Part shown: positions 25,679 through 31,218 of the stretch, in pieces
How the letters are laid out: each line of letters opens with the position of its first letter
Numbering within the stretch: the first letter of the stretch is position 1
Origin: Candidatus Hydrothermarchaeota archaeon
GTDB taxonomy: Archaea; CAYFZR01
Length of the DNA: 37,148 bases
Direction of reading: 5' to 3'
NCBI GenBank assembly: GCA_046760505.1
Contig: JBHIEG010000019.1
Span: forward strand, 1-37,148
Position numbers and translations under genes: made by a program
The notes under the pieces: generated by a model
Told to the model about the DNA's origin: nothing
What the model saw: only the letters and a program-made list of their open reading frames with translations
Database searches by the model: none

Positions 25679-26773
25679 ATGGTGACAGCGTTTGTAGGGC
25701 TTCCCTGTCAGATTCAAGCGTTGAAAAAGGCTAATATCATGTTAAATAAGTTCAAGGATACTTTTTCAATTGGACTCTTCTGCAGGGAAAACTGGTGCTA
25801 CTCTTGCATGCGCGCGTTAGTGGAAGGAGACCATGGCATAGACCTCAGTTCTGTTAAAAAGTTCGAGATAAAAGGAAACAGTATGCTAATAAGCTATAAC
25901 AGAGAGGTAATTGAGATACCACTATCCGAATCAAGGCCATATGTAAGATTATGCTGCCAAGTTTGCTTAGATTTTTCTTCTGAACTTTCAGACGTTTCCG
26001 TAGGATCATTAGGCTCGCCTAACGGCTGGTCAACCCTTATTCTACGAACAGACTATGGAATTAAAATAGTGGAGGGCGCAAAAAAAGAGGGTTACATCGA
26101 AGTAAGATCAATAAAAGATTCCGGAATCAGATCAATACGTAATATATCCCGAGAAAAAAAGGAAGAAAGTCTAAAAGAGGCTAAAGTGATGGAAAAGAGT
26201 GGAATAAATGTTCCTCACATCCTTACGAAGGATGATATAGATCTGGAAGATTTTAAATACTATTCTAAAGATAAAAATTTTTCTGATTTGGAATTTAATG
26301 TCGTAGATAATGGCTTCTGCGTTTCATGCGGTACATGCGCTGCTATTTGCCCATATGACGTCCTCGAATTGCCCAATGAAAGACCTCGTTTATTAAAAGC
26401 ATGTCCAAGTGGATGCAACCTTTGTTATCTCGCTTGTCCAAGAACCTCTTTCCAGATACCTGCAATAGAAGAGAAAATTGAATTTGCCTCTAGAATCAGG
26501 GATGAAGACCTTGGTTATTATGCAAAAATCCTAGCAGCAAGAACCAAGGTTAGTTCCATTAAAGGACAGGACGGCGGCGTAGTGACCTCTCTCTTAATGT
26601 ATGCTTTAGACTCAGGGCTGATAGAAAGTGCAGTTACCGTAACTCATGGAGACATGCCTTGGAAACCAAAGGCTACAATCGTAAAAAATAAGATAGAACT
26701 GCTCAAAACTTCTGGAAGTATTTACTCGGTGTCCACTACAATGCAGAGTTTAAGAGACTCTTTTATTAAATAA
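25679..26773 (+). CDS. FrhB/FdhB-family (F420-interacting) flavo-iron-sulfur protein with circularly permuted domain order
   Basis: Starts with C-domain motifs (VGLPCQ, IGLFC, CxxCxDF, DVSVGSLGSP-x-GWS), then a 2x[4Fe-4S] ferredoxin (from aa 214), then the N-domain (QDGGVVT at aa 297, GSIY). Confidence 0.88.
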   Translation: MVTAFVGLPCQIQALKKANIMLNKFKDTFSIGLFCRENWCYSCMRALVEGDHGIDLSSVKKFEIKGNSMLISYNREVIEIPLSESRPYVRLCCQVCLDFSSELSDVSVGSLGSPNGWSTLILRTDYGIKIVEGAKKEGYIEVRSIKDSGIRSIRNISREKKEESLKEAKVMEKSGINVPHILTKDDIDLEDFKYYSKDKNFSDLEFNVVDNGFCVSCGTCAAICPYDVLELPNERPRLLKACPSGCNLCYLACPRTSFQIPAIEEKIEFASRIRDEDLGYYAKILAARTKVSSIKGQDGGVVTSLLMYALDSGLIESAVTVTHGDMPWKPKATIVKNKIELLKTSGSIYSVSTTMQSLRDSFIK

Positions 26774-26975: not shown

Positions 26976-27305
26976 GTGGCCTTGGGAGAAGAATGGTGGA
27001 AAATTCCAAGTCCAAGTTTCACATTCCTAGTCGCTTTATTAGTTGGCTTACTCGGAGGAAAATTATTTACCAGCCTTACGGCAGCAACAATCAGCATTCC
27101 TCTGAGCGTAAGTACAAATATTCATGGTCTCGTATTTAAGACGGTTATACTTTTTGTATACGGTGCTCTTTTCGTTTTCCTATTTGGAGGTCATGAAAAA
27201 GAGGAAATATACTTGTTTATAAGAAACTTAAAGCCAACGATCCTTCACGGAGCAATATTAGGTATCGTTCCAATAATCGTGCCTGTCATCATTGGTCTGC
27301 TTTAA
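26976..27305 (+). CDS. Small hypothetical membrane protein (about 3 TM)
   Basis: RBS AGGAGGT before GTG; hydrophobic segments; 27 bp upstream of the Rieske gene. Confidence 0.75.
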   Translation: MALGEEWWKIPSPSFTFLVALLVGLLGGKLFTSLTAATISIPLSVSTNIHGLVFKTVILFVYGALFVFLFGGHEKEEIYLFIRNLKPTILHGAILGIVPIIVPVIIGLL

Positions 27306-27332: not shown

Positions 27333-27818
27333 ATGGCTAGAAAAGGGATAACCCGAAGATACTTCCTGTATTTACTTGGAGGCGGTGCCATTGCATCGTA
27401 TGCAATGGCTTTTACGGGTGCTTTAATAAAATTTGCTTGGTCACCAAAGTTACGAGCAACGGCATCCCAAAGTGAAGTTGAAATTGCAAAATCTGGAGAA
27501 ATTCCGGTAGGTGAAGCAAAGCTTTTCAAGTTCCAGGGTAAGCCCTCTATACTCATCCATCTAAGCGATGGCTATTATGCATTTGGAGCAGTTTGCACGC
27601 ATCTTGGCTGTGTTGCCAAATGGAAAGATCTGGAAAACAACGAGGTCATATACTGTCCGTGCCACATAGGAAAAATAGACCCAAGAACTGGAGAGGTTCT
27701 TGCAGGTCCAATACCAAGCCCATATCCTAAAATAATTATCGAAGAAAAGGAAGGGGCTATATTCGCCAAGGGATGGAAAGATCCCGAGTACGTTAAATCG
27801 CTCCCCATGTATGCATAA
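27333..27818 (+). CDS. Rieske [2Fe-2S] protein with Tat signal/anchor (QcrA/PetC-like)
   Basis: TRRYFL twin-arginine motif, TM helix, CTHLGC and CPCH boxes, GP-x-P-x-P; RBS GGAGG. Confidence 0.93.
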   Translation: MARKGITRRYFLYLLGGGAIASYAMAFTGALIKFAWSPKLRATASQSEVEIAKSGEIPVGEAKLFKFQGKPSILIHLSDGYYAFGAVCTHLGCVAKWKDLENNEVIYCPCHIGKIDPRTGEVLAGPIPSPYPKIIIEEKEGAIFAKGWKDPEYVKSLPMYA

Positions 27819-27944
27819 ACCAAACCTTTTTATTTTTTTAAATCTTAAAGTATTTTGAAATAATCGTAAAAAATATCTCAATTTTGGTTCAAAAAAAGAA
27901 AAATTGATAGTATAAGAGATAGAAATTAGTTATTGGGAATTGAA

Positions 27945-28049
27945 ATGGCAATAAATGGGAAATATTTTGTTCTTGGCTTAGCAGGATTGGCAATGGTAAC
28001 GTACGCCCTTGCTTTAACAGGCATCCTCATAAGATTTCTGTTTACCTGA
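27945..28049 (+). CDS. 34-aa single-TM microprotein paralogous to the Rieske anchor helix (not in ORF track)
   Basis: Hand translation MAINGKYFVLGLAGLAMVTYALALTGILIRFLFT; 13/26 ungapped identities to the Rieske N-terminal anchor; followed by a T-rich tract. Confidence 0.7.
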   Translation: MAINGKYFVLGLAGLAMVTYALALTGILIRFLFT

Positions 28050-28089
28050 AAGAGTCAATTTAAATTTATTTTATTTTTTATCAATCTTT

Positions 28090-28362
28090 TTAACTCGTTC
28101 TTGTTTTGTTAAATAGTTCCTCCCCATCTTCTGTTAATCTATAAAACTTAATTCTCTTAAAATCTGATTCAACCTCTTCTATCAGTCCTTCTCTCTTTAA
28201 AAGTTCTATTTCATACTTTACGGTACCCCATTGCATGCCTATTCTGTTAGAAATCTGGTTTATATTTAATAGGCCATAATCTGAGTTTTTCAAGGCCCTC
28301 AAAATATTGATTCTTGTCGACCCACCTCCGCTTATAAGAAGTGTCAATTTTGACTTGGTCAA
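28090..28362 (-). CDS. Winged-helix (ArsR-like) transcriptional regulator, paralog 1
   Basis: GG-x-TR-x-x-IL-x-AL, NQIS...WGTVKYEIELLKREGLIEEV, YRLTEDG. Confidence 0.88.
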   Translation of the reverse strand: MTKSKLTLLISGGGSTRINILRALKNSDYGLLNINQISNRIGMQWGTVKYEIELLKREGLIEEVESDFKRIKFYRLTEDGEELFNKTRTS

Positions 28363-28488
28363 ATCGACTCCCCCATCACATCTTGTATAAATTGTAATTA
28401 ATTTTAATACAATTTCACACTCATTTTATATAAATTTTGTTATTACAAATTTTACAAGTTTAATTAGGGCATGTATAAAAGATTTTTA

Positions 28489-28575
28489 ATAAGCGAGTTA
28501 TAATGGAGCTTCTTTTATTATAAGCGGCTTATATTTTTTCTTAAAAATAAAAAAAGTCAAATATAACAAAGTTAT
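28489..28575. promoter_or_regulatory. Three copies of a 13-bp ATAA-N5-TTAT palindrome (candidate operator)
   Basis: ATAAGCGAGTTAT (28489), ATAAGCGGCTTAT (28520, extends to TATAAGC-G-GCTTATA), ATAACAAAGTTAT (28563). Confidence 0.55.
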
Positions 28576-28586
28576 TTTTGTGATGT

Positions 28587-28751
28587 ATGAAAAAGAAACG
28601 CTGTGCGGTGTGTGGCGAAGTGGTCGGAAGAAGAACTGGTACCCACTATGCCAATAGGCTCATTCATAAGCGATGTGTGGGCATGGCTATCATAATTCAG
28701 AAGTGTCAAATGACAAGAAAAGGTGATCTTACTCTCACGTATACGTTATAA
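28587..28751 (+). CDS. 54-aa CxxC-x17-HxxC zinc-finger microprotein (not in ORF track)
   Basis: Hand translation MKKKRCAVCGEVVGRRTGTHYANRLIHKRCVGMAIIIQKCQMTRKGDLTLTYTL; a GC-richer stretch within an AT-rich spacer. Confidence 0.65.
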   Translation: MKKKRCAVCGEVVGRRTGTHYANRLIHKRCVGMAIIIQKCQMTRKGDLTLTYTL

Positions 28752-28808
28752 GACCTGATACCATCACACATCATTCAACAATGTCTATGAATCCAAAATA
28801 AAACTCAT

Positions 28809-29084
28809 TCAGGAAGTTGAGGTCTTTTTCAGCAATTGCTTACAGTTTTCTGTTAATCGATAGAACTTAGTTCTCTTATGATCTGTTTTCACTTCTTCTA
28901 TCAGTCCTTCCCTCTTTAAAAGTTCTATTTCATACTTTACAGTGCCCCACTCCATGCCTATTCTGTTAGAAATCTGGTTTGTATTCAGTAGACCGAATTC
29001 CGAATTGTTTAGTGCCTTAAGTATCTTCAATCGGGTCTCTCCACCTCTACTCAGAAGGACTATTTTTGATCTGATGTGATCCAA
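28809..29084 (-). CDS. Winged-helix (ArsR-like) transcriptional regulator, paralog 2
   Basis: SRGGETR, identical WGTVKYEIELLKREGLIEEV core. Confidence 0.88.
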   Translation of the reverse strand: MDHIRSKIVLLSRGGETRLKILKALNNSEFGLLNTNQISNRIGMEWGTVKYEIELLKREGLIEEVKTDHKRTKFYRLTENCKQLLKKTSTS

Positions 29085-29249
29085 TGTCTCTCCCCTTATT
29101 TTTATATTTGTTCAAAATAACTTATCGATTATTTTTATTTATAGATTTATTTTATGAATGATTAGTTTAGAGCCATTTCAGGTTCTTTTTAAGAATTTTT
29201 AAGTTAGTTGATCTACTTTGAAGGCATTTTTTATCGCTATTAATGAGTA

Positions 29250-29639
29250 TCAATCAACCTTGGATAAGATTGAATGGAAATTACAGGTATTACACCTCTG
29301 TACGCATATTTCAGCATGAATTTTGCAAAATTCTTCGCTTGATCTGATTATTTCACACACTTCGCAAATTTTAGACAGGGAAATCATTGGATCAAACTTC
29401 TCACTCATTATATTTTCTTCAATTTCATGGATAAGATTTAGGACCTCTTCTTTTTTTGCAATTTCAGTCCAAAATGCATGTTTTCCACTCATATAGTGAC
29501 ATATGGCTGGTTGTGTGACTCCTAATTTCTCAGATACTTCATTTTGTGACATCCCGTATTTTTGAATCAAGTCTCTTGTTATTATAGACCTTATGGTAGG
29601 AAGCACCTTCTTTACAACAATTTCACACGGAGGTCTCAT
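29250..29639 (-). CDS. Archaeal HTH transcriptional regulator with PPCE N-terminus and Cys/His-rich C-terminus
   Basis: MRPPCE...LPTIR, SQNEVSEKLGVTQPAICHY HTH, CxxC...CxxH...CxxxCxxC; RBS GGAGGT. Confidence 0.88.
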   Translation of the reverse strand: MRPPCEIVVKKVLPTIRSIITRDLIQKYGMSQNEVSEKLGVTQPAICHYMSGKHAFWTEIAKKEEVLNLIHEIEENIMSEKFDPMISLSKICEVCEIIRSSEEFCKIHAEICVQRCNTCNFHSILSKVD

Positions 29640-29815
29640 ACCCTACCTCCATTTTTGTATATATTTTAACAATAAATTGTAATAAAAAATTTTATTATAT
29701 AATTTTGTTAGAGAATTTTAACAATAAAAGGGTTTAGTTTTTTAGGAATAATTTTAAAATGATTTTAAATTCTTTTTTCACTTTTTCAGAATTTAATAGA
29801 CGTAAAAGTCAGGCA

Positions 29816-29959
29816 TTAAATGCCTTGCATTTTCCTTATACTTCCAAGACCTTTGACTAATGTAGGGCCGGAACATTCCGGACATGGAGCATTTCGGAGT
29901 AACAAACTACCTGCGGATTGACTGAATTCATATCCGCATCTTTTACATTGAAATATCAA
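29816..29959 (-). CDS. 47-aa zinc-ribbon microprotein (not in ORF track)
   Basis: Hand translation MIFQCKRCGYEFSQSAGSLLLRNAPCPECSGPTLVKGLGSIRKMQGI (TTG start, RBS AGGTG); CxxCG-x-x-F...CPxC. Confidence 0.75.
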   Translation of the reverse strand: MIFQCKRCGYEFSQSAGSLLLRNAPCPECSGPTLVKGLGSIRKMQGI

Positions 29960-30184
29960 ATTCCACACCTTTGATTTATTTATTAAACAACAAATTGTAG
30001 TAAATTTTAATAAGATTTTAGAACGTATATAGGTTTAGTTTATTTTAAATGAGTTTAGATGATTTTTTTAATTATTTTAGAATTTTTAACAATTCAAAAA
30101 GTATTTTTCAACTCAGAAAAAAATCAAAATAATCTTCTTTTCCTTTTAAATTGTATTATTTTTTTTAAATTTTTTAAAAAACTG

Positions 30185-30233
30185 ATAACAGAGTTATAAA
30201 AGAAATAATAAAGTTATAGGAAAGCTTATAAAC
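30185..30233 (+). promoter_or_regulatory. Two ATAA-N5-TTAT palindromes followed by a BRE/TATA-like element
   Basis: ATAACAGAGTTAT (30185), ATAATAAAGTTAT (30205), then GGAAAG-CTTATAAA about 27-40 bp before the ORF at 30260. Confidence 0.55.
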
Positions 30234-30259
30234 TAGAATCTCCATAATTCTGGTAGTGA

Positions 30260-30628
30260 GTGGATAAATTGCCAAGTACTTCAGGTGAACATTTGGAGTT
30301 AAGGAAGTTGCTGAAAACCACAGGAGAATACCCTGAGAAGCCAAACAAAGAGAACTTCTGTTCAGTATATCTCATAACAGGAGAAATCATACATGGCCAG
30401 ATTGACAGCGAGAGTGAGTACCCTTATATCCATGTGACAACGCCCGAGAAAATTTATTTCATTCATGATAATTCCATCATAAAGATAGAGATGCCGACGG
30501 ATGAGCATCTGGATGAATACAAGAAAGAAATAGAAAACATGGATAAAGAAGAAAATGGTTCTCAAGGTAAAGAAGATACAGACAAAGAGAATAAAGAACC
30601 TTTCCGACCAGAACTCATATTCGAGTAA
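30260..30628 (+). CDS. Hypothetical protein with probable Sm/Hfq-like fold and acidic tail
   Basis: CSVYLITGEIIHGQIDS resembles the Hfq Sm1 motif; FIHDNSIIKIE sits in the Sm2 position; D/E-rich C-terminus. Confidence 0.6.
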   Translation: MDKLPSTSGEHLELRKLLKTTGEYPEKPNKENFCSVYLITGEIIHGQIDSESEYPYIHVTTPEKIYFIHDNSIIKIEMPTDEHLDEYKKEIENMDKEENGSQGKEDTDKENKEPFRPELIFE

Positions 30629-30715
30629 TACAAATTCCCACGGATGTAAAATTTTTTGATTGATATGAGTCTCAAGTAAACTAAATTATTTGACAAGACG
30701 AATCACTGATTTAGG

Positions 30716-30988
30716 TTAATCTGATATTCTTTTGGATAATTCCTTCCCTATATCTGTCAACGTGTAAAATTTGGTTCGGTGGTGTGATTCAACCTCTTCT
30801 ATCAGTCCTTCTCTCTTTAAAAGTTCTATTTCATACTTTACGGTACCCCACTCCATGCCTATCTTGTTAGAAATCTGGTTTGTATTCAGTAGACCGAATT
30901 CCGAATTGTTTAGTGCCTTAAGTATTTTGGCTCGGGTCTCTCCACCTCTGCTCACGAGAAGAATTACCTTGGGTCTTATCGGATCCAT
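30716..30988 (-). CDS. Winged-helix (ArsR-like) transcriptional regulator, paralog 3
   Basis: SRGGETR, identical WGTVKYEIELLKREGLIEEV core, YTLTDIG. Confidence 0.88.
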   Translation of the reverse strand: MDPIRPKVILLVSRGGETRAKILKALNNSEFGLLNTNQISNKIGMEWGTVKYEIELLKREGLIEEVESHHRTKFYTLTDIGKELSKRISD

Positions 30989-31218
30989 AACATTCCCCCA
31001 ATTGCGATTGTTGCGAAAATTTTACAACAATTCGTTATGATTTCAACATATTTTATCGATTAATTTCTATTTATAGGTTCATTTTATAAATGGTGAGTTG
31101 TAAACGTTTTTTTATCAATTACAAAACTTTTTTATATTATTTTCAGAAAAATTTCCCAAAACCCGGTTATACAAAAACTAACTGACAAAGAATATGCACA
31201 AATTTTGCGTGATCAATC

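Follow-up and report, generated by a model that had tools for sequence, protein, structure and literature searches.

A 34-residue paralogue of the Rieske anchor, most likely a genus-restricted microprotein, beside a Rieske gene of a hydrothermarchaeotal genome

A 34-codon ORF lying 3′ of the gene for a Rieske [2Fe-2S] protein in a rare vent archaeon (Candidatus Hydrothermarchaeota) encodes a peptide that, by sequence comparison, is a paralogue of the Rieske anchor helix, with a similarity that goes beyond amino acid composition. We regard a real, genus-restricted microprotein derived from that anchor as the most likely identity of the peptide. The explanation that we favour goes further, and as a whole we give it an even chance: a genuine, lineage-restricted, single-pass membrane microprotein of 34 residues, which goes back to a duplication of the Rieske anchor that predates the separation of the two known species in the genus and which is a putative accessory or placeholder of cytochrome b6/subunit IV. 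According to this explanation, the uncleaved Tat signal-anchor of the Rieske protein would have been partly duplicated as a separate gene, the copy keeping the anchor helix and losing the entire cluster-binding head as well as the twin-arginine motif. The features on which the argument draws are listed here, with positions in the window, that is, the whole stretch of 37,148 nt that was analysed.

26976..27305, plus strand: 109-aa multi-helix membrane protein with no family assigned, directly 5′ of the Rieske gene
27333..27818, plus strand: Rieske [2Fe-2S] protein of 161 aa, parent-type (Pfam PF00355, E 9.6e-11)
27827..27839, plus strand: T-tract directly 3′ of the Rieske stop codon; a T-run is found in the sister genome too
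27888..27911, plus strand: 24-nt block, 100% conserved between the two species, 34–57 nt 5′ of the ATG in the alignment
27935..27941, plus strand: Shine-Dalgarno-like GGGAATT, 7 nt 5′ of the ATG and identical in the sister genome
27945..28049, plus strand: small ORF, 34 codons from ATG to TGA, coding for the hydrophobic, single-helix paralogue of the Rieske signal-anchor, without twin arginines
28065..28079, plus strand: T-rich run 3′ of the small ORF, inside the 40-nt gap before the convergent gene
28090..28362, minus strand: intact winged-helix regulator of 90 aa, convergent, forming the boundary of the locus; same arrangement in the sister genome

The small ORF and its surroundings

The ORF begins with an ATG at 27945 and ends with a TGA at 28047–28049, and its product, read directly from the sequence, is MAINGKYFVLGLAGLAMVTYALALTGILIRFLFT (34 aa). 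In the ORF listing the same frame opens at an upstream TTG, giving 38 aa. The sister genome has an in-frame TAG just 5′ of the ATG, and the ATG is thus the start common to both species. A short polar head is followed by a single hydrophobic helix of ~23 residues (GRAVY 1.51), and the translation contains neither Cys nor His. Searches of Pfam (E ≤ 0.01) and NCBIfam assigned the peptide to no family, the PetG, PetL, PetM and PetN profiles included. The C-x-H ... C-x-x-H beta-sandwich head of PF00355 is present in the adjacent Rieske gene and absent from the peptide, and the best ESM Atlas score of the peptide was 0.85, below the bar of 0.9. The earlier note had described the peptide as unannotated. 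This is right in that no name is attached to it, but the exact peptide and its sister-species version are already in public predicted-protein collections, nameless there.

Several features suggest that the small ORF has its own expression signals. At the same distance from the start as its Shine-Dalgarno-like motif, GGAGGAATT or GAGGAATTGA precedes further genes of the window, the Rieske gene being one of them. The ORF is separated from the Rieske stop codon by a spacer of 126 nt, which includes the T-tract at 27827..27839. This tract is a putative archaeal termination signal, in which case the small ORF would likely be a separate transcription unit, and the 24-nt block further downstream in the spacer is a candidate promoter or operator of the small gene. 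No second copy of the block was found in the genome at up to three mismatches, so that no regulon can be inferred from it. The spacer and the T-rich run at 28065..28079 are as the earlier note had described them. Between the stop codon and the convergent winged-helix gene there are 40 nt, which leave no room for a longer ancestral reading frame; nowhere else in the locus is conservation so low, and two indels, of 24 and 6 nt, separate the two genomes here. The sequencing runs listed for the locus are four DNA runs of one study, three of them possibly the source of this DNA, and include no RNA run; the DNA contigs show no variant in the ORF.

The Rieske gene itself has a T-R-R-x-F-L Tat motif, an N-terminal anchor helix and the ligand motifs C-T-H-L-G-C and C-P-C-H; among the NCBIfam models it aligns best with b6f PetC, over residues 5–151 and below the curated cut-off. 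The 109-aa gene precedes the Rieske gene in the sister genome as well. Its product matched no family in Pfam or NCBIfam and only nameless clusters in the ESM Atlas.

Further out, a gene for a 364-aa FrhB/FdhB-like protein (25679–26773, plus strand) lies between iorB and the 109-aa gene and is not there in the sister genome. Its Pfam order is swapped, with FrhB_FdhB_C at residues 4–147, 4Fe-4S at ~208–256 and FrhB_FdhB_N at 285–358. On the other side of the locus, three paralogous winged-helix genes of ~90 aa are found on the minus strand (28090–28362, 28809–29084 and 30716–30988), with a 54-aa CxxC ORF at 28587–28751 among them, and the stretch 28090–31000 has a low GC of 0.31–0.33. In the sister genome the first two winged-helix genes and the CxxC ORF stand in the same order. 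Summed contig depth over 28114–28335 rises up to ~9-fold in three of the DNA runs and to a smaller extent in the remaining one, which suggests a repeated family in the community.

Resemblance to the Rieske anchor and origin of the copy

BLASTP aligned residues 2–34 of the peptide with residues 5–37 of the Rieske protein without gaps (14/33 identical, 22/33 positive, E 3e-8 for this single comparison), and none of 20000 composition-preserving shuffles had as many identities with Rieske residues 1–45, or as high a BLOSUM62 score, as the peptide itself. When the 2.17-Mb genome was searched in six frames with the peptide, there were three matches at E ≤ 10, one being its own ORF and the other two the N-terminus of each Rieske paralogue, and a two-row profile of the peptide and its sister-species version gave the same outcome. 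The earlier note had pointed to a 34-aa peptide resembling the Rieske anchor minus its twin arginines and had counted 13 identities in a 26-residue ungapped alignment; the resemblance stands on the figures above, and a recount by eye gave the same 13/26. Its two further readings of the alignment were also borne out: T-R-R-Y of the Rieske protein is replaced by N-G-K-Y, and the ORF stops where the hydrophobic stretch of the Rieske protein ends (FLFT aligned to FAWS). In the sister species, E-K stands in place of G-K. Seven residues (F8, G14, A16, Y20, A23, T25 and F31) are invariant between the peptide and four full-length anchors. They do not lie on one face of the helix, the moment of the invariant columns being not above that of shuffles (P 0.66).

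The Tat signal consensus is S/T-R-R-x-F-L before a hydrophobic core. All four full-length anchors have the R-R, whereas the corresponding residues are N-G-K-Y-F-V in the peptide and R-E-K-Y-F-V in its sister version. This bears on a reading of the peptide as a Tat modulator, in which it would mimic the hydrophobic core of the Rieske signal in the TatBC cavity or on a signal-binding chaperone and so tune how the two Rieske paralogues are exported. In favour of this reading are the match of the peptide to the h-region of a Tat signal and the presence of TatC in this genome. However, the twin arginines are the main determinant of TatC recognition and have been replaced by G-K and E-K, and we consider a Tat modulator very unlikely.

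At the DNA level, the 32 codons of the small ORF that align with Rieske residues 6–37 (27348–27443) are identical to the Rieske codons at 51 of 96 nt, divided as 20, 21 and 10 of 32 over codon positions 1, 2 and 3. Identity is thus 64% at positions 1 and 2 and 31%, about the random level, at position 3. The skew is significant for this pair (Fisher P 0.0023), and P is <0.05 in six of the eight peptide-by-Rieske pairs, with values of 0.064 and 0.135 in the remaining two. The claim that the DNA had diverged while the protein pattern was kept therefore describes the data well. Since synonymous sites are close to random while positions 1 and 2 are 64% identical, the duplication is old, and the same contrast argues that the copy was constrained for most of its history. 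Recent gene conversion has left no sign.

The nearest homologues of the Rieske protein outside the genus are of the Methanoperedens type (48–53% identical overall), and their anchors do not match the peptide, which points to a copy made within this lineage. Over the 32 aligned residues, identities of 11–17 do not separate the type of paralogue that was the source. A tblastn search for anchor-only ORFs beside more distant Rieske genes, including 9 genome-contig and 25 metagenome loci, found none beyond the genus. We conclude that the ORF most likely originated by partial duplication of the Rieske anchor, before the split of the two known species.

Such an origin would also be compatible with a functionless relic, left by a partial tandem duplication or by a second Rieske gene cut by the regulator cluster, whose frame has stayed open by inertia and chance. 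The ORF adjoins the low-GC stretch with its repeated winged-helix genes, and both the Tat motif and the head are absent, as a relic would have it. Against this, the identity of 64% at positions 1 and 2 and 31% at position 3 speaks for long constraint. In addition, when the Rieske protein was searched against the entire genome (E ≤ 10), only the Rieske gene, its 76% identical paralogue and the small ORF came up, with no decayed head anywhere. The earlier note had named decayed Rieske sequence downstream as the finding that would make the ORF a simple truncated pseudogene, and it is absent there as well as genome-wide. A fresh truncated pseudogene with remains was therefore rejected. An older relic has to be weighed against the comparison with the sister species.

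Conservation and selection between the two species

In the collection searched, the phylum consists of two genomes of one genus, and every lineage-specific feature rests on one comparison. Among the 41 genomes searched with the Rieske protein, close homologues were found only in the sister genome (G001). The gene order there is a 107-aa membrane protein, the Rieske protein (86% identical), the small ORF, a convergent winged-helix gene, a 53-aa CxxC ORF and a second winged-helix gene, so that the arrangement is conserved and the small ORF lies beside the Rieske gene in both genomes. A metagenome contig (L036) that carries the sister peptide is identical to the sister genome at 1540 of 1544 positions and thus is not independent. 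When a profile of the two peptides was run on 1.84 billion representative proteins, four hits reached E ≤ 0.001, one being the peptide itself and the others three long proteins (581–6246 aa). The long proteins match over 14–17 profile positions only and were rejected as relatives, these short stretches being read as composition matches, and no further family member was found in that collection.

The small ORF of the sister genome has 34 codons, shares 24 of 34 amino acids, starts at the same ATG and stops at the same codon (TGA in one species, TAA in the other). The 25 nucleotide differences between the two ORFs are split 4/5/16 by codon position (binomial P 0.0016 for at least 16 at the third), and the amino acid replacements are more conservative than those produced by random changes matched in codon-position counts (P 0.03). 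For this one species pair, the dN/dS of the small ORF is 0.20–0.22, compared with 0.02–0.07 for the Rieske gene, 0.12–0.16 for the 109-aa gene and, according to method, 0.03–0.17 for the Rieske anchor; being several-fold above that of the anchor, it indicates that constraint has been relaxed. In a 2.9-kb global alignment of the two genomes no gap event falls in the 105 nt of the small ORF and two fall in 1920 nt of other coding sequence, while the seven spacers have 16 in 815 nt, with at least one in each. At the spacer rate, 2.1 events would be expected in 105 nt, and the probability of none is ~0.13. In neutral simulations with 26 substitutions, start, frame and stop survived together in 6.6%.

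Two of the checks proposed in the earlier note, conservation in relatives and dN/dS, came out in favour of a gene: the ORF is kept in the sole relative with the same length, start and stop, and a dN/dS of ~0.2 is a signature of purifying selection, again for one species pair. By its conserved ORF, start, stop and frame, its synonymous excess and its lack of indels, the small ORF is classed, for this species pair, as a protein-coding gene under purifying selection, and we think that it is probably a translated gene under selection.

A relic would account for the confinement of the ORF to one genus and for a dN/dS above that of the parent, and neither the 6.6% of neutral simulations that keep the ORF nor the probability of ~0.13 for no indel is extreme alone. 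The excess of third-position differences (16/25), the conservative replacements and the conserved start, stop and Shine-Dalgarno-like motif argue against it. Together with the lack of any other Rieske remnant and the long constraint seen in the comparison with the Rieske codons, these make a relic, in our judgement, rather unlikely. If the ORF is a relic, it would still serve as a warning: with no more than two genomes to compare, an ORF of 34 codons can pass several tests of conservation.

The codon-position test alone does not pick the strand, because both genomes have an open antisense frame of 28–34 codons with the same wobble position. The constraint might then be on this frame, or on regulatory DNA or RNA, and not on the sense ORF, and the strong conservation of the upstream DNA would fit a regulatory element. 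However, the sister genome has ATA in place of the antisense ATG found here and its antisense stop lies elsewhere, and antisense replacements are harsher, with a mean BLOSUM62 of −0.36 against +0.3 for the sense frame. The homology with the Rieske anchor backs the sense frame independently. The sense strand was chosen for these reasons: start and stop are conserved in sense only, its replacements are milder, and it is the one with Rieske homology. An RNA element was rejected after no Rfam family matched and no stable fold was predicted (z +1.23). Constraint on anything other than the sense ORF appears extremely unlikely.

Partner genes and possible roles

This genome encodes a single cytochrome b6 (233 aa) and a single subunit IV (148 aa), in an operon on contig C23 (L035 2505–7060, minus strand) that contains no Rieske gene. 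The small ORF and cytochrome b6 are thus on different contigs and unlinked. Two membrane proteins, one of 104 aa with CxxCH and one of 86 aa, precede cytochrome b6, and a FAD oxidase (482 aa) and a CCG-domain protein (386 aa) follow cytochrome b6 and subunit IV; on our reading of the sequences, these last two are a GlcD-like FAD oxidase and an HdrD-like protein. The flanks of the operon also include a 66-aa membrane protein. Such a partner set is unusual for a Rieske/cytochrome b complex. In Methanoperedens-type loci the order is multiheme cytochrome, a ~117-aa protein, a 93-aa membrane protein, Rieske, cytochrome b6, subunit IV and a ~85-aa membrane protein, the Rieske gene lying directly before cytochrome b6. 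This order indicates that the Rieske protein studied here belongs to a family of Rieske/cytochrome b6 complexes in which additional small membrane subunits occur. Neither the 93-aa (Methanoperedens) nor the 86-aa (contig C23) small membrane protein resembles the 109-aa neighbour.

Only two Rieske-domain genes were found in this genome, the window copy and a paralogue on the 2.6-kb contig C101 (161 aa, 76% identical; L002 1080–1565, minus strand). No small anchor-like ORF accompanies the paralogue on that contig, and its gene context differs from that of its counterpart in the sister genome. The sister genome also has a tandem Rieske pair of 171 and 190 aa (contig C84, L015) and a further Rieske and cytochrome b pair (contig C7; L021, L066), whose cytochrome b is 51% identical. 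Neither was found in the window's genome with the same queries, which reflects either a real difference in gene content or gaps in the 142-contig assembly.

Lacking twin arginines, the peptide would have to enter the membrane without Tat and, lacking the cluster-binding head, it would not itself transfer electrons. Because residues of the Rieske helix are preserved in it, the peptide may pack on a partner surface of the kind that this helix uses, most likely that of the cytochrome b6/subunit IV core, coded on another contig with no Rieske gene of its own. There the peptide might serve as a small accessory or placeholder subunit, with a competitor or decoy as a special case. It is possible, though not probable, that the peptide acts on the Rieske/cytochrome b6 complex at all, and we doubt that it specifically competes for the Rieske slot. 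A fuller version, in which a headless, Tat-independent anchor paralogue sits in the Rieske slot as an assembly placeholder, or as a competitor that sets the number or choice of the two Rieske isoforms, seems similarly improbable. A complex prediction with two copies each of cytochrome b6, subunit IV and the peptide, made from shallow alignments and without controls, scored 0.00, a value that speaks neither for nor against binding. The earlier note had interpreted the peptide as a decoy or placeholder for the Rieske slot; the Rieske-anchor origin, own translation signals and, in one species pair, selection signature behind that interpretation are supported, while binding to cytochrome b, TatC or the 109-aa neighbour and a decoy or regulatory action are hypothetical. 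A decoy or placeholder, a plain accessory subunit and a slowly decaying relic appear about as likely as one another.

The peptide might also be a genuine small membrane protein that acts outside the Rieske/cytochrome b6 complex, such as a modulator (for example of the 109-aa neighbour) or a type I toxin-like peptide. Consistent with this, the T-tract 3′ of the Rieske gene and the conserved block upstream of the ORF make it look like a transcription unit of its own, the invariant residues form no single binding face, and the ORF is not linked to the cytochrome b6 genes. As to a type I toxin-like arrangement, the convergent gene ends 40 nt downstream, which makes antisense overlap possible, and no RNA family matched. 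However, the ORF has been retained beside the Rieske gene in both species, the seven invariant residues are shared with four full-length anchors, and no toxin-like family was matched in Pfam or NCBIfam. An unrelated role is, in our view, unlikely.

The favoured reading, a membrane microprotein derived from the Rieske anchor, can be set beside several known systems. The closest is the uncleaved Tat signal-anchor of PetC/QcrA-type Rieske proteins of bc1 and b6f complexes, to which the peptide is homologous and with which it shares the length of the hydrophobic helix and a K/R-F flank at its end. It differs in having no twin arginine, hinge or [2Fe-2S] domain and in being encoded by a separate 34-codon gene. 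Subunit 9 of the bovine cytochrome bc1 complex is the cleaved Rieske presequence, kept in the complex. Like the peptide, it is a Rieske-derived N-terminal segment present as a separate small component, but it is a proteolysis product of a matrix-targeting presequence, whereas the peptide has its own gene and derives from a membrane anchor. PetG, PetL, PetM and PetN are one-helix stoichiometric subunits of cytochrome b6f, with ~30–40 residues. With these and with CydX, all of them parts of complexes that oxidize or reduce quinols, the peptide has at most a functional analogy as a small, one-helix hydrophobic protein. CydX is described as a small one-helix subunit of cytochrome bd oxidase (PMC6005532). 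The peptide is unrelated in sequence to PetG/L/M/N and CydX, which, unlike it, are not known to derive from the anchor of another subunit, and its membership of a complex is putative. On the sequence features given above, it is not a Rieske protein, a Tat signal or a member of the PetG/L/M/N families.

The logic of the decoy idea is that of eukaryotic 'microProteins'. These are fragment paralogues, such as LITTLE ZIPPER and the ID proteins, which titrate the partners of their parents. Both they and the peptide consist of an interaction module alone, from partial duplication. The eukaryotic examples, however, are soluble transcription-factor fragments of plants and animals for which dominant-negative action has been shown, while in the peptide the module is a predicted membrane helix of an archaeon, whose action is hypothetical. 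A full-text literature search, judged by listings and abstract openings, returned neither a prokaryotic respiratory example of a microProtein nor a description of a stand-alone Rieske-anchor peptide.

Small one-helix proteins are more and more known as parts or regulators of respiratory complexes, and their origin is seldom clear. Here the origin can be read directly: the Rieske anchor appears to have been copied, stripped of its export motif and catalytic head, and apparently kept by selection. If it does take the Rieske slot as a placeholder or competitor, the peptide would extend the eukaryotic 'microProtein' principle to a respiratory complex, as its prokaryotic counterpart embedded in the membrane. 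If it sits in or near the Rieske site, it would provide a natural tool for the study of how the Rieske helix is recognized by the cytochrome b core and of the exchange of Rieske isoforms, as well as an example of regulation by a fragment paralogue in archaea.
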